Source: an uncultured Chloroflexia bacterium (GTDB lineage: Bacteria > Chloroflexota > Limnocylindria > Limnocylindrales > CSP1-4). Taken from it: a stretch of DNA of 64,000 nucleotides. The position numbers were made by a program, and so were the translations under genes. The notes under the pieces were generated by a model. The model did no database searches and was not told where the DNA came from. It was given only the letters and a program-made list of their open reading frames with translations. The stretch's first letter is position 1. The number at the start of each line of letters is the position of its first letter. This document shows, piece by piece, positions 44,241 through 54,597 of the stretch. Location: positions 128,846 through 192,845 of the forward strand of contig CAVVDB010000007.1 in NCBI GenBank assembly GCA_963746865.1, written 5' to 3'.

Positions 44241-44260
44241 CGCACACGCCCGCCGCGGCC

Positions 44261-44375
44261 GCATGCATCTCACTCATGAGATTCGCGTCCCACACGCTTG
44301 ACGGTGGGTCGATTCCGACGGAATCGGGGGGTGGCCACGCTCATTCGAGGCGATTCCTATGCCTCAGATGCATGC
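44261..44375 (+). repeat. family A palindromic repeat, copy 5 (core 44263-44373, 111 bp)
   Basis: ATGCATCTCACTCATGAGATTCG...CGATTCCTATGCCTCAGATGCAT. Ends 9 bp before the stop of gene 44382..45179. Confidence 0.9.
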
Positions 44376-44381
44376 GGCCCG

Positions 44382-45179
44382 TCAGCGGGGACGAGATCGA
44401 GTGGCCCGCATGAAGGCGGCATAGTCGGCATAGGGTGCGGCCTGCCGTCGGCCGTCGAGCCGGAGCGGTCGAAGCCAGGCCTGCCGTCGGGACTGCGGGT
44501 CGATCATCGCGACGGCCCGGCCGCGGCCGACCTGTGTGCCCTCGCCGGCGACCAGGGCAGACAGGTCGCGAGCTCGCAGCGGGAATCCGGTGGCGAACGT
44601 CGTCCGGTTCGCGACCACACGGTCATCGTTGGCTTCGGTGGCGAGCAGGAGCAGCGATCCGAGGATGCGACGAGGCTGCCACCCGCGCCGTCGGGCCGCC
44701 GTGACCGCGTCCCGCTCGTACCAGCTCAGCGAGCGCTCGATGGCGCCCAGGTCGTGGATCTCCGTCTTGACCTCGATCACGAGGAGCAGCCCGGTCGGCG
44801 GGTGATAGGCGAGCACATCGATGAATCCACGGGACCGGTTGCCCCCGATCTCGACCTCCGTGTCGACCTCCCAACCGTCGCGACGCAGCCGCCTCGCGAT
44901 GTAGGCCGTACACAGCGCGTGCGCAGGCTCCTTCTGACGCTGCCGATCGCCGAGGAACGGGGCGTCCACGGTGATGACCAGTCGCGCGCCCATCGCGGCG
45001 AGCAGGCGTTCAGCCGTGTCGATGGTCAGGTCGTCCTGACGGCCGTGCTCGATCCGCGAGACGGCCGACTGCGACAGGCCGACTCGCCCACCAAGCTCCC
45101 GCTGAGGCCAGCCGATCGCCCTGCGGATGGTGGCGACGGCATCTCCCACGATCAGGCGGCCAGGTTGGTCGATCGGCAT
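44382..45179 (-). CDS. XRE-family HTH protein with a C-terminal PD-(D/E)xK-like nuclease-fold motif
   Basis: 265 aa. HTH QRELGGRVGLSQSAVSRIEHG. GFIDVLAY...LLLVIEVKTE gives D...E-x-K spacing typical of restriction-endonuclease-like folds. Paralog at 52987..53640. Confidence 0.6.
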   Translation of the reverse strand: MPIDQPGRLIVGDAVATIRRAIGWPQRELGGRVGLSQSAVSRIEHGRQDDLTIDTAERLLAAMGARLVITVDAPFLGDRQRQKEPAHALCTAYIARRLRRDGWEVDTEVEIGGNRSRGFIDVLAYHPPTGLLLVIEVKTEIHDLGAIERSLSWYERDAVTAARRRGWQPRRILGSLLLLATEANDDRVVANRTTFATGFPLRARDLSALVAGEGTQVGRGRAVAMIDPQSRRQAWLRPLRLDGRRQAAPYADYAAFMRATRSRPR

Positions 45180-45258
45180 CGCCGATTCATAGCAAGGGGC
45201 GCTTATCCGGCACGTATCCGGCGCTCACCTCGCCGCCATACCGGTGTCGCGACGGGCG

Positions 45259-45373
45259 GTATGCATCCTGCTCATGAGAATCGGCTCGAACGAGCGTGGC
45301 CACCCCCGACTTCTGACGGAATCGGCACACCGTCAAGCGTGTACGACGTGAATCTCATGAGTGAGATGCATGC
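45259..45373 (-). repeat. family A palindromic repeat, copy 6 (core 45261-45371, 111 bp)
   Basis: ATGCATCCTGCTCATGAGAATCG...GAATCTCATGAGTGAGATGCAT. Centre is inverted relative to copy 5. Confidence 0.9.
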
Positions 45374-45427
45374 GGCGGCGGCGGCGGGCGGGGAGGCGCG
45401 GCGGGCCCGCCCTCGTCACGTTGGGCG

Positions 45428-45542
45428 GTATGCATCCTGCTCATGAGAATCGGCTCGAACGAGCGTGGCCACCCCCGACTTTTGACGGAATCGGCACACC
45501 GTCAAGCGTGTACGACGTGAATCTCATGAGTGAGATGCATGC
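45428..45542 (-). repeat. family A palindromic repeat, copy 7 (core 45430-45540, 111 bp)
   Basis: Differs from copy 6 at one position that I could see (CTTCTGACGG vs CTTTTGACGG). 169-bp period. Confidence 0.9.
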
Positions 45543-45616
45543 GGCGGCGGCGGCGCGCGGCGGCGGCGGCGGGCGACGCGGCGGCGACGGGCGCACGCGG
45601 CGGCGACGGGGGCGGG

Positions 45617-50668: not shown

Positions 50669-51880
50669 GTGATCCAGGAACCGATCCAGCCAGTCCAGGC
50701 ACCGCCCACGGCGACCGCCAAGCCCCGCTCGAGCAACACGCTCAAGATCGGGCTCGTGGCCGCGCTGTGCCTCGCGCTGATCGTTCCCGTCGTGATCGCC
50801 ATCGCGGCCAATTCGGCGCCGTCGTCGCAGGACCCGCTCGGGCTCGCCGCGGGCGCCTCGGATGCACCGGCCGCGGCCGGTTCGGCCGCGCCGAACAAGG
50901 TCGATGGCACCGGCGACAAGGGCGACCGGAAGGGCTTCGACTTCGGACGGGGCGGCGCCGGCCGCGGGCCGATCACCATCCGCTCGATCAACGGCAACAG
51001 CCTGGGGCTCGGGACCGACGACGGCTGGACGCGGACGATCGTCGTCGAGTCGACGACCACGATCACCAAGGGCGGGCAGCCGGTCGCGCTGAGCACGCTG
51101 AGCGTCGGTGACGAGATCCGGTTCAGCCAGAAGAAGAACGACGACGGCACCTACACGATCACCGCCATCGTCCTGCCGACCCCGAAGGTCGCCGGCAAGG
51201 TGACCGTGGTGACCGACACGATGATCTCGGTCGACGTCAAGGGCGACACTGACAAGGTCATCACCGTCAACGGCTCCACGGTCTACAAGTTCGGCAAGGA
51301 TGGTGCCGCGAAGAAGGCCGATGTGACCGTCGGCGACCGGATCACCGCGCAGGGCGAGGTGAGCGGCACGACCTTCACCGCCATCACCGTCACGATCGCA
51401 CCCGATGTGGCCGCCGGCAAGGTGACCGCGGTGACCGACACGACCATCACGGTCGATGGCCGGGGCGACACGAACACGGTCATCACCGTCAACGGCTCCA
51501 CGGTCTACAAGCTGGGCACGGATGCCGCGAAGAAGGCCGACGTGACCGTCGGCGACAAGATCGGTGCGCAGGGTGAGCTGAACGGGACGACCTTCACCGC
51601 CAGCACCGTCACGATCGCGCCCGACGTGGCCGGCGGCGTGGTGACCGCCAAGACCGCCGACTCCATCACGGTCAAGGGCCGGGACGACAAGACGACCGTC
51701 ATCCACGTCTCCTCCAAGACGACCTACAAGGTCCACGGCAAGGACGCCGCGACCATCGCCGACATCGCCGTGGGCGACTGGGTCGGGGCGACCGGCGTCT
51801 CGCGCGCCGACGGGTCCCTTGACGCCACGATCGTGGGCGGGATGAACCCGAAGGGCTTCAAGCTGCCGAAGGCCCCGTAG
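50669..51880 (+). CDS. membrane-anchored secreted protein with 4-5 tandem DUF5666-like beta domains
   Basis: 403 aa. GGAGGA before the GTG start. N-terminal TM IGLVAALCLALIVPVVIAIAA. Repeated units ...VAGKVTxVTDTxITVDxxGDTxxVITVNGSTVYKxG...KKADVTVGDxIxAQGE... Confidence 0.65.
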   Translation: MIQEPIQPVQAPPTATAKPRSSNTLKIGLVAALCLALIVPVVIAIAANSAPSSQDPLGLAAGASDAPAAAGSAAPNKVDGTGDKGDRKGFDFGRGGAGRGPITIRSINGNSLGLGTDDGWTRTIVVESTTTITKGGQPVALSTLSVGDEIRFSQKKNDDGTYTITAIVLPTPKVAGKVTVVTDTMISVDVKGDTDKVITVNGSTVYKFGKDGAAKKADVTVGDRITAQGEVSGTTFTAITVTIAPDVAAGKVTAVTDTTITVDGRGDTNTVITVNGSTVYKLGTDAAKKADVTVGDKIGAQGELNGTTFTASTVTIAPDVAGGVVTAKTADSITVKGRDDKTTVIHVSSKTTYKVHGKDAATIADIAVGDWVGATGVSRADGSLDATIVGGMNPKGFKLPKAP

Positions 51881-52001
51881 CCGCGAGTCCCGCCCCGTAG
51901 CTGAACGCGGTCCCGCCCGGCCGGTGCCCAGGCCGGGCGCGCACCGCCCCACCCCGCCCCGCCCCGCCTCGCCCCGCCCCGCCTCGCGCCCCCAGCGCAG
52001 G

Positions 52002-52191
52002 CCCGCCATTCACCCCACGGCTGAACGGACCGACGACCGGCGCGGCGGCGGTCCGGTGAGTCACCCCGCGACTGAACTGACCCCGGCAACCCGTTCGAGG
52101 CGCCCTCGCCGGTCAACTGAGTCGTCCGGTGCATCGTTCCGACCTTGCGCGTCGGCCCGCCGGTCGTAACAGGCGCCCCGTGAATAGGGGG
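52002..52191 (+). repeat. family B imperfect palindrome, copy 1 (190 bp)
   Basis: CCCGCCATTCACCCCACGGCTGAACGGACCGACGACCGG...CCGGTCGTAACAGGCGCCCCGTGAATAGGGGG. Compared directly with copies 2 and 3. Confidence 0.9.
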
Positions 52192-52209
52192 CATGGCAGG
52201 GCCGAGCCT

Positions 52210-52753
52210 TCAGCAGTCGAACACGAACCAGCACAACTCGTTGCGCAGCCGTTGGTCGTCAAGCACGAGTTCCCGGATCTCGTCGGGGAGCTGGGCACGC
52301 TGCCAGTCGCACTCCAGGTGGCCGGCCGCCTCGCCCTCGTCCTCCGGCGCTGCCGCTCGCACCGCCCTGATCGCGTAGGCCGCTGCACCCAGTTCATGGG
52401 CCGCCACATGGCCGACCGCCGCGGCCTGGCCGGCAGCGTACGCGGCATGCCGGGCTGCCCCACGCAGGTCCCTGGCCGCTGCGTTCGCATGGCCGGCCGC
52501 CGAGCGGGCCTCTGCCCACGTGACCTCACCCCGCGCCCAGGCACGCCCGAGCTCGATCGCCCGCCCGTGGACGGTCGTCCTTCGGCCGAGCCTGCTCGAA
52601 GTGGGGCAGCACGTGCTCCGCGCAGTCAGCCGCCCACAGCGCAAGGAGCCGATGATCGTCGTCCTTGAGGGTCCCGCCGCGGCGCACGGTGATGAACCGC
52701 GGATCCCGGATCTTGGGAAGGATCACCTGGTCTGCCCACCTCGCTCGGAACAT
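52210..52753 (-). pseudogene. conserved actinobacterial-type helical protein (family I recall being annotated as putative immunity protein), one apparent frameshift near 52545
   Basis: N-terminus MFRARWADQVILPKIRDPRFITVRRGGTLKDDDHRLLALWAADCAEHVLPHFEQARPKDDRPR in ORF 52526..52753. Continuation RAIELGRAWARGEV...AAHELGAAAYAIRAV...LVLDDQRLRNELCWFVFDC in ORF 52210..52644. Confidence 0.5.
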
Positions 52754-52787
52754 CTCTCGGAATGATGCCCGTCCTCAGCCGACCCGG

Positions 52788-52976
52788 CCCGCCATTCACC
52801 CCACGCCTGAACCGACCGATGACCGACGCGGCGGTGGTCCGTTGAGCCGCCCCACGACTGAACTGACCCCCAGGAGGCCCGTCCAGGCGCGCTCGCCGGT
52901 CAGGTGAGTCGTCGGGTGCATCGTTCCGGCAGGGCACGCCCGTTCGCCGGTCGTAACAGGCGCCCGGTGAATGGCC
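52788..52976 (+). repeat. family B imperfect palindrome, copy 2 (189 bp)
   Basis: CCCGCCATTCACCCCACGCCTGAACCGACCGATGACCG...CCGGTCGTAACAGGCGCCCGGTGAATGGCC. Confidence 0.9.
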
Positions 52977-52986
52977 GACGGGTCCC

Positions 52987-53640
52987 TCACAGCAGGATGA
53001 GCGACCAGCCACCTGGGTCCCTCCCCTCCCTAAGGGCCCGCAACGCATCCCGGGCTGGGACAGGGAACATCTCCCGGAATGACGCCTCCGCGGCCCGGAT
53101 GGCAGCCCGGTTCGCTCGGGTGTCGGAGACGAGCAGGATCACCTGTTCGATGCCGGAGTCCCGCGCCTTGAGTGCGATCCGGCGTTGGAGTGCCTGGCTA
53201 TCCACGATCCGCGTCTCGGCCTCGACGCCGACCAGCTTTGGCGCCCCGATCACGTGGAGGTCCCAAGCTCGCTGATCTCCGGCGATCGGGACCGGAACTT
53301 CGGACCGCAACGCGAGCGGTTTGCCGACATATGGCCGGAACCGGTCGATGAGGTGGGTCTGCCCCTGATCACGCAGCGGAGCTCCGCCCGGATAGAGCTT
53401 GAGCGAGAGGTCCAACCCGAGGACACTCGCGATGCGGCACAGCTGCTCGAGCGACACGGTGGCCAGGACGCCACGCTCGATCCGGCTCACCTGGGACTGT
53501 GACAGATCGCACGCCTTCGCAACGAAGGCCTGGCTTAGACCGAGTCCGATCCTTGTGGTCCGAAACTCCTCCCCGGTCGTCCGACGGATCCGGTGGCAGA
53601 GGCGCAGTCCCCGATCAAGGAGGCGCTGACGAGATGGCAT
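52987..53640 (-). CDS. XRE-family HTH protein with PD-(D/E)xK-like C-terminal domain (paralog of 44382..45179)
   Basis: 217 aa from Met at 53640 within ORF 52987..54501. HTH LSQAFVAKACDLSQSQVSRIERG. RAWDLHVIG...LVGVEAETRI aligns with the D...EVK region of the paralog. Confidence 0.6.
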   Translation of the reverse strand: MPSRQRLLDRGLRLCHRIRRTTGEEFRTTRIGLGLSQAFVAKACDLSQSQVSRIERGVLATVSLEQLCRIASVLGLDLSLKLYPGGAPLRDQGQTHLIDRFRPYVGKPLALRSEVPVPIAGDQRAWDLHVIGAPKLVGVEAETRIVDSQALQRRIALKARDSGIEQVILLVSDTRANRAAIRAAEASFREMFPVPARDALRALREGRDPGGWSLILL

Positions 53641-53693
53641 GAGCGTAGGGTGACGAAGGGCACGTAGCTGCGGCTTACCGAGCCCCGCCAAGG

Positions 53694-53885
53694 CCCGCCA
53701 TTCACTCCACGCCTGAACCGACCGACGACCGACCCGACGGCGGTCCGTTGAGCCACCCGACGACTGAACCGACCCCCGGCAGCCCCTCCAGACGCCCTCG
53801 ACGGTCACCTGAGCCATCGGGTGCATCGTTCCGGCAGGGCACGCCCGCCCGCCGGTCGTAACAGGCGCCCGGTGAATAGCGGGGG
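53694..53885 (+). repeat. family B imperfect palindrome, copy 3 (192 bp)
   Basis: CCCGCCATTCACTCCACGCCTGAACCGACCGACGACCG...CCGGTCGTAACAGGCGCCCGGTGAATAGCGGGGG. Confidence 0.9.
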
Positions 53886-54003
53886 TATGGCACAGGCCCG
53901 GCACGGCCACGCGCCGAGCCGGGACCAACGGGGCAGCGCCGGCAGGCATCGACAAGGACCAACGGCGGGCTTCACGCCCCATCCAGCCGACTACAATCGG
54001 GCC

Positions 54004-54597
54004 ATGACGTGGGACACCAGTTTCGAACCACCGGCGAACCCGCATGACGAGCCGGTCGAGCTGGTCGGCACGCACCTGCGGCTGAAGGGGGTCATCGGTC
54101 TCGGGCGGTTCGGGCGGCTGACCGATCTGATCAATGCCTCGAGCGGCTACGTCCGAGTCCGCGACGTCCAACTCCTCAGGCGCAACGGCGACCCGACCAG
54201 CCTCATCCTCCCCGAGTTGATGGTCGACCAGGACGAGATCTCGTTCATCGCCCAGCACGAGGCACCCGCCCCGGAGCCCGGTGCGGCCGGCGGCTACGTC
54301 GACAGCTTCAGCACTACCGCCGTCGTCTCCCGCAAGGCGCGCGAGTTCGTCATGTTCACGCCCGGGCACACGGTCACCGGCAAGGTCCACATCTTCGGCC
54401 AGACCGACCTGGCCGGGTTCGTCGACTCGTCGGACCCGCGCTTCGTGCCGGTGACCAGCGTCACGACCCGCTCGCTGGCCGACCGGCGGATCATCAGCCA
54501 CTACGAGTTCGTGCTGATCAACCGGACCCAGATGATCGCGGCGTCCGAGATCGGTCGGCAGGGCGACTTCGCGCCCGAGGACGTCCCCGACCTGTAG
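54004..54597 (+). CDS. hypothetical protein with two related small beta-rich domains
   Basis: 197 aa from ATG 54004 within ORF 53821..54597. The ORF part upstream of that is translated from family B copy 3. Internal duplication (LRLKGVIGLGRFGRLTDLIN...ISFIAQ vs TVTGKVHIFGQTDLAGFVDS...QMIAASE). Confidence 0.5.
   Translation: MTWDTSFEPPANPHDEPVELVGTHLRLKGVIGLGRFGRLTDLINASSGYVRVRDVQLLRRNGDPTSLILPELMVDQDEISFIAQHEAPAPEPGAAGGYVDSFSTTAVVSRKAREFVMFTPGHTVTGKVHIFGQTDLAGFVDSSDPRFVPVTSVTTRSLADRRIISHYEFVLINRTQMIAASEIGRQGDFAPEDVPDL

Follow-up and report, generated by a model that had tools for sequence, protein, structure and literature searches.

The closest described counterparts of the locus considered here are the REP/REPIN-RAYT systems (Nunvar, 2010; Bertels and Rainey, 2011; Bertels et al., 2017, PMC5581495; TnpA-REP, PMC8266576). 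In these systems, a vertically inherited gene, present in a single copy per type, is flanked by a short palindromic non-coding repeat. The repeat is dispersed between genes, its population size varies across genomes, inverted pairs of its motif form hairpins, and each paralog of the gene has its own repeat family. RAYT with REP is so far the only well-described case of a domesticated, vertically inherited enzyme with its own palindromic repeat population. The same features are found in an uncultured Chloroflexia bacterium, at a locus within a 64,000-nucleotide stretch of DNA (the window; C7:128846-192845 of the 9-contig assembly G000, 3.46 Mb, 70% G+C, 85% complete). Here, imperfect palindromes of about 190 bp, termed family B, bracket gene 2 (52987..53640, minus strand), which encodes a 217-amino acid protein with an XRE-type helix-turn-helix (HTH) domain and a PD-(D/E)xK-like domain. 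With a probability of roughly 0.6, family B and gene 2 form a REPIN/RAYT-like partnership, in which the product of gene 2 would be the cognate protein of the repeat and would represent an unrelated enzyme.

The layout of a REP/RAYT system, a single-copy inherited gene bracketed by its own dispersed palindrome, is thus present at this locus, but the enzyme is of another kind, as the gene 2 protein is an XRE-HTH and PD-(D/E)xK-like fusion rather than a HUH/Y1 transposase. Because the defining enzyme is absent, gene 2 and family B are not members of the REP/RAYT group. In addition, the repeat families found here are longer (111-190 bp, with four motifs), and their host belongs to the Chloroflexota (Limnocylindria) rather than to the Proteobacteria. 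REPs typically bear a GTAG/CGTC head. A full-text literature search returned only the REP/RAYT literature and no paper on such a pairing of an HTH-nuclease with a hairpin. Family B also resembles the ERIC/IRU and Correia (NEMIS) elements and bacterial miniature inverted-repeat transposable elements (MITEs), which are likewise non-coding, intergenic, imperfect palindromes of 100-200 bp, often co-transcribed with their neighbors and polymorphic for insertion; like a MITE, it has terminal inverted repeats, a small size, and no coding capacity. Correia elements are flanked by a fixed TA duplication, and none of these elements is known to bracket a dedicated cognate gene. The duplications that flank family B, on the other hand, are variable or absent, and no parent insertion sequence (IS) was found for it.

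Family B in the window and across the genome

Reading of the sequence from 51600 to 54300, together with alignment, places three direct copies of family B on the plus strand of the window. Copy 1 (52002..52191; nhmmer, 168 bits) lies 18 bp 3' of an Imm5-like gene, convergent with a DUF5666 gene; copy 2 (52788..52976) sits between gene 2 and the Imm5-like gene; and copy 3 (53694..53885; 173.7 bits) falls between a DUF6812 gene and gene 2, with 53 bp separating it from the 5' end of the latter. These copies, their terminal and inner inverted-repeat pairs, and the spacings of 18, 34, 10, and 53 bp between copies and genes had been reported in the initial annotation, and all were recovered. The three copies are 79-88% identical. 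When copy 2 serves as the query, the identity is 88% for copy 3 (E 3e-63) and 84% for copy 1 (E 1e-50). The window copies are 84-88% alike among themselves in this comparison, as opposed to 77-80% when compared with any dispersed copy, which suggests local duplication or gene conversion. Folding of the two single strands of copy 2 gave an unequal result: the plus strand, treated as RNA, forms one long imperfect hairpin (-105 kcal/mol, z = -3.6, with 0 of 200 shuffles folding as well), whereas the minus strand reaches only z = -1.5.

An iterated nhmmer search of the whole assembly detected 21 full-length and 2 partial copies on six contigs. Of the roughly 21 copies, 18 are solitary and adjoin unrelated genes. 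Every copy is intergenic, as a rule with a gene 3' end 5-60 bp away, and copies occur in both orientations relative to the neighboring genes. In crude gene calls based on GC3, not one of the 18 solitary copies is flanked by a divergent gene pair. No transposase-sized gene is present between any pair of copies in the genome. Overall, the copies share 77-88% sequence identity and fall into two subfamilies, with the termini CCATTCACC...GGTGAATAG and CTAGTCGCC...GGCGACTAG. As read from the consensus, a motif of approximately 26 nt (roughly ATKCA-CCCC-ACGRCTGAAC-GACC) occurs twice in each arm, and the four motifs of an element make up two nested inverted pairs. In the family B alignment, 74.4% of cells are paired, which falls to 25-41% when the partners are slid but is close to the value in column shuffles (73.6%), indicating that the palindrome is real and is inherited as sequence; neither RNAalifold nor pair counting gave a covariation signal. 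No Rfam covariance model matches family B, and neither a terminator-like nor a promoter-like site was found in it, T-tracts being absent. It can be stated with high confidence that family B is a lineage-specific, non-coding palindromic element of roughly 190-250 bp that has recently multiplied in this lineage to about 21 copies, and that it is not an attC-type site.

Dispersal by insertion is apparent from the empty sites found when other genomes of the genus were queried with the sequences that flank dispersed copies. Seven dispersed family B sites are empty in related species. For instance, 18 or more genomes of the genus have 15-80 bp between the convergent genes around C7:113026, as opposed to about 260-300 bp in G000, and in two relatives the stop codons of these genes overlap in CCTAGC. 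Flank-only queries from C1:33605, C8:48297, C4:452071, C1:134897, and C1:225230 align straight across the junction in relatives, and the two flanks of C7:240654 lie about 21-130 bp apart; at C7:362848 the left gene is not conserved in relatives. Family B was found at none of the seven orthologous sites in relatives. With family B as the query, a BLAST search of 40 relatives returned no more than short matches of marginal significance (E 1e-4 to 1e-3), in three genomes, and scanning 185,579 species genomes for an 18-mer core produced single chance matches in unrelated phyla only.

The sequences around the insertions are less uniform. A 7-bp direct repeat (GCCTAGC) flanks family B at C7:113026 and a 13-15-bp direct repeat (GCCCGGGCGCTGA) flanks it at C7:362848, each including the stop codon of the upstream gene, and at the remaining dispersed sites flanking direct repeats occur at the level of chance. 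A relative that lacks the element likewise shows a duplication of the CTAGCGGA motif at the C7:113026 site; given this, and the inconsistency of the repeats, no defined target duplication is claimed. Insertion sites also carry an extra, non-conserved 20-45 nt on either side of the family B core, and together these variable duplications and extra nucleotides do not fit a simple transposase with a fixed stagger. At two of the sites, other genomes carry inserts of about 300-360 bp that do not belong to family B (G352:C30:24225-24588, at the site of C1:33605, and G010:C10:185605-185902, at the site of C7:113026); these inserts may be hairpin elements in their own right, with a use of the same positions between genes.

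Gene 2, its orthologs, and its paralogs

Residues 20-80 (approximately) of the gene 2 protein form an XRE-type HTH (HTH_3, 1.7e-11), and the C-terminal domain (residues 90-217, approximately) has no sequence match in Pfam, NCBIfam, PADLOC, or the PDB. AlphaFold models the whole protein with a pLDDT of 90.5. Because a fold search with the full-length model was swamped by the HTH domain, the C-terminal domain was modeled separately (pLDDT 92.9, pTM 0.87). The resulting model has an alpha-beta-beta-beta-alpha-beta core, the order of which fits PD-(D/E)xK, and its top fold matches in the PDB are all PD-(D/E)xK nucleases: the DdmD nuclease domain, EcoT38I, Bax1, AF1548, OkrAI, Hjc, and the R2 endonuclease. 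Across 58 homologs there is almost no variation at Asp127 and Glu142, and Glu or Asp occupies position 140 in the sequences shown. The C-terminal domain probably belongs to the fold class of several PD-(D/E)xK nucleases of mobile DNA, such as Tn7 TnsA, the R2 restriction-like endonuclease, XisH, and the Hjc resolvases, and the R2 enzyme, Hjc, and an XisH-like protein are among its weak fold matches. It differs from these nucleases in that there is no relationship at the sequence level, and in being fused to an XRE HTH with no partner transposase or reverse transcriptase.

G000 encodes three paralogs of this family, and all three are flanked on both sides by a dispersed hairpin family of their own (families A, B, and C). 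Gene A (44382-45179, minus strand, in the region 44250..45553) is 25% identical to gene 2 over about 200 amino acids (E 3e-7) and contains a canonical D...E-V-K motif. It is accompanied by family A hairpins at 44250-44383, 45251-45384, and 45420-45553; its left and right flanks match each other with an E-value of 9e-26, and those of gene 2, which carry family B, with an E-value of 1.5e-37. The third paralog was found by tblastn at C4:245493-246248 (minus strand), where it is bracketed by family C repeats of about 180 bp (C4:245294-245481 and C4:246273-246449), and at least four further copies of family C are present at C1:7005-7197, C3:647724-647916, C3:414964-415137, and C5:346466-346642. As read from their sequences, the three families share an ATGCA/ATTCA-like terminus. 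By our own estimate, based on 21 copies spread over 3.46 Mb, a given gene would have family B copies within 60 bp of both its ends by chance with a probability of the order of 1e-7. A further dispersed repeat of about 125 bp, family D (C1:225455-225589, also L007:1715-1849; core ...AGCGAGCGCACC..GTGCGTGAGCGAGGAGCGCA...), has at least 10 copies in G000 and no Rfam match. Unlike family B, it is common to several species, with many copies of 80-90% identity in other members of the genus.

On long contigs, the orthologs of gene 2 lie in the neighborhood GT2 ... DUF6812, gene 2, DUF5666, histidine kinase, and the order DUF6812, gene 2, DUF5666 is kept in four relatives (L047, L048, L049, and L052). 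The identity of gene 2, DUF6812, and GT2 to their counterparts is 62, 86, and 87-96% in L048, 65, 75, and 76% in L047, and 59, 74, and 82% in L049. Gene 2 is accordingly a resident, vertically inherited gene, and it diverges faster than its neighbors do. Its repeats have persisted along with it. Among eight orthologs of at least 59% identity with usable flanks, a clear two-sided repeat of about 180-200 bp is present in six (L048, L049/50, L066, L067, L068, and L052), a weak one in L047, and none in L065; at the syntenic loci L048, L049, L066, and L067, a repeat occupies the position equivalent to that of copy 3. The score of the flanks against the family B hidden Markov model (HMM) tends to drop with the identity of the protein, although not monotonically: 171-174 bits at 100%, 134 at 86%, 73 at 62%, 41 at 60%, 31 at 65%, and 13 at 59%. 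Repeat and protein have thus diverged together, and wherever family B is recognizable in an ortholog, it points the same way relative to the gene as it does in G000. The best reading of these data is that the three copies in the window mark the home locus of the element, namely the flanks of the vertically inherited gene 2, and not the boundaries of cassettes.

Of 301 genomes sampled from the class, 172 carry homologs of gene 2, with as many as 10 in a single genome. Another sample of 301 genomes, drawn from the whole phylum, contains 27 with a match, and all 27 belong to the Limnocylindria; no homolog was found in plasmid and phage collections. One homolog is recorded under the name "Candidatus Limnocylindrales bacterium". 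Many homologs reside on contigs of about 1 kb, as would be expected if repeats on both sides break assemblies. A BLAST comparison of the left and right flanks at 29 homolog loci found nothing, but this method is too insensitive for the purpose, as it misses family C too, and nhmmer was used instead. DNA folds of the flanks in L021, L024, and L026 revealed no clear single hairpin.

The Imm5-like gene and the insertion of copy 2

The history of copy 2 can be followed in two close relatives. In L064, which carries an 81% ortholog of gene 2, an intact 175-amino acid Imm5_like gene follows 10 bp after it on the same strand, with no repeat between the two, and the 95 bp downstream of the Imm5-like gene show no family B. 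L051 (86% ortholog) has a family B copy (HMM E 6e-41) between the gene 2 ortholog and the Imm5-like gene, and this copy is flanked by a direct duplication of about 27 bp of the 3' end of gene 2, GGTGGCT[G/A]GGCGATCATCATG[C/T]TGTGA. Since the gene pair is directly joined in L064, copy 2 is an insertion that split a pre-existing pair. G000 shares the insertion seen in L051. The spacer between the start of the Imm5-like gene and copy 2 in the window (52754..52787, minus strand) holds a second, degenerate version of the gene 2 3' end that aligns to the L051 duplication, although in a decayed form, and may be what remains of a target duplication. Another possible trace of duplication, a similarity over 23 bp (52747-52769 against 53064-53086), was considered and rejected, as it is only marginally above chance and a decayed duplication of the L051 type explains it better.

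The initial annotation had treated 52210..52753 (minus strand) as one intact gene. These 544 nt have no single open frame. Rather, two open reading frames match the Imm5_like profile (PF21805), 52526-52753 at profile positions 2-41 and 52210-52644 at positions 38-128, and comparison with L064 and L051 reveals an extra base near 52562 (52555-52570; CCACGGGCGGGC against CCGCGT-CGGGC), so that the gene is split by a +1 frameshift. The frameshifted gene is either a pseudogene or the product of an assembly error; in the sequence of events proposed here, copy 2 would have been inserted and the Imm5-like gene would then have gained its frameshift. No Imm5-like gene is present in L047, L048, or L049. 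In the closest relatives, the HTH-nuclease and Imm5_like genes form a tight same-strand pair with a 10-bp gap (L064:5-1187, corresponding to 52210-53640 of the window), which could be a pairing of a nuclease toxin with its immunity protein.

Several other features were observed nearby. Between the gene 2 ortholog and DUF5666 in L048 (L048:3650-4133) are about 5-6 tandem units of approximately 62 bp (GGCCCGTTCAGGCCCCGGGTGCATGAACCGGCC...), each forming a small hairpin akin to the inner family B motif, and the L048 ortholog itself appears to change frame near its C-terminus. In the window, a C-rich run of CCCCGCC/CCTCGCC units (51925-51990) lies between the DUF5666 stop codon and copy 1, and the DUF5666-domain gene contains three tandem repeats of 219-222 bp (51082-51730; 63-80% identical) that correspond to repeated protein domains.

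Proposed partnership and rival explanations

In the proposed partnership, the HTH domain of each protein would recognize the repeated motif of its own hairpin family, and the nuclease domain would nick or cut at or near the ends of the hairpin or cruciform, where the terminus shared by families A, B, and C is found. Such cutting would allow the element to be copied into new intergenic sites, or to be maintained there, in parallel to the action of RAYTs on REPs and REPINs, although by an unrelated enzyme. The DNA on which a nuclease of this type acts would possibly be double-stranded or cruciform rather than single-stranded.

The initial annotation offered two other possibilities, a cassette-like system and the repeated insertion of a hairpin element into a hot spot. 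The attC sites of integrons, like family B, are imperfect palindromes 3' of single open reading frames, and a hairpin after each frame together with the tight spacing would agree with an integron-like or other cassette system. Such sites are 57-141 bp long and are conserved in structure only; family B, by contrast, is 190 bp long, is 77-88% conserved in sequence, and has 18 solitary copies dispersed among other genes. The initial annotation had found no canonical attC (R''/R') cores in it. The remark that no integrase was visible proved to be correct genome-wide for the integron integrase, as the best TIGR02249 match in G000 scores 85.8 bits against a cut-off of 265, lies on another contig, and is a generic tyrosine recombinase. 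Moreover, the supposed cassettes are a resident gene that is syntenic in four relatives and an operon partner that is directly joined to it in L064. The cassette reading is therefore extremely improbable. Insertion, on the other hand, agrees both with the absence of copy 2 from L064 and with the seven empty sites elsewhere; what the notion of a hot spot had missed is that this spot would be the partner gene of the element, its paralogs being bracketed likewise by families A and C.

If insertion is accepted, the element could still be an ordinary MITE or orphan palindrome, moved by an unrelated transposase that may have been lost or be unassembled, or by recombination or replication errors, with the flanks of gene 2 being merely favored targets or inherited copies. 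Its terminal inverted repeats, intergenic setting, insertion polymorphism, and direct repeats at some insertions all agree with this, and an assembly that is 85% complete could be missing the transposase. Searches of G000 detected no Y1/RAYT/IS200-type transposase (PF01797, which control genomes do match) and no parent autonomous IS with family B ends, an absence that is not proven at this level of completeness. Chance targeting, however, does not explain the one-to-one pairing by which three repeat families in one genome each bracket a different paralog of one gene family, nor the persistence of the bracket at a syntenic locus while repeat and protein diverge, and this explanation is considered unlikely. 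Less probable again is that the hairpins are cis-regulatory or structural sites (operators, stabilizers of mRNA 3' ends, terminators, or nucleoid sites) that are bound by the HTH protein, with an inactive or ligand-sensing nuclease-like domain and the copies as its regulon. XRE-HTH proteins are usually palindrome-binding repressors, the catalytic lysine is replaced by glutamate, and copies lie at gene 3' ends; yet none of the 18 solitary copies is found in a divergent promoter region, no terminator or promoter pattern is matched, the acidic residues at the catalytic positions are nearly invariant, and the copies are lineage-specific insertions at sites that are empty in sister species, unlike a conserved regulon. 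That family B represents genes for structured non-coding RNAs is very doubtful. The stronger fold of the plus strand would agree with such genes, but the fold is that of a simple DNA palindrome that lacks covariation, an Rfam match, and a promoter-like site, and the copies lie in both orientations relative to their neighbors.

Several observations weigh against the REPIN/RAYT-like partnership itself. The hairpin is kept through shared sequence, with no covariation signal of selection in the family B alignment. The nuclease fold matches are weak (E 0.016-0.3, with the top seven at 0.016-0.06; TM 0.4-0.47). In the gene 2 clade, Glu takes the place of the usual Lys in the (D/E)xK motif, and activity is not assured; BamHI-type enzymes use E-x-E, and OkrAI is among the fold matches of gene 2. 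Among homologs of 40-53% identity, nhmmer detects a two-sided repeat at just 4 of about 34 loci, and in five other genomes the flank repeat has zero to about five further copies detectable by BLAST. Lastly, the direct repeats at three sites differ in length (7, 13-15, and about 27 bp), and no fixed target duplication or clear transposition chemistry can be read from them.

Extended beyond family B, the REPIN/RAYT-like partnership would mean that the Limnocylindria harbor an undescribed class of such pairings, in which each XRE-HTH and PD-(D/E)xK paralog keeps and spreads its own palindromes of 110-190 bp, as a convergent counterpart of REPIN-RAYT built on a fold of the restriction-enzyme type; this wider proposal has about an even chance of being right. 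If true, a second, unrelated enzyme class would have the same layout, and "intragenomic symbiosis" would have evolved more than once. It would also define a new family of sequence- or structure-specific nucleases with natural and easily read target sites, and would explain why, in metagenomes from soil and fresh water, many members of this gene family appear on contigs of only about 1 kb. As three mutually distinct pairs of protein and repeat reside together in one genome, the specificity of such partnerships is directly testable.

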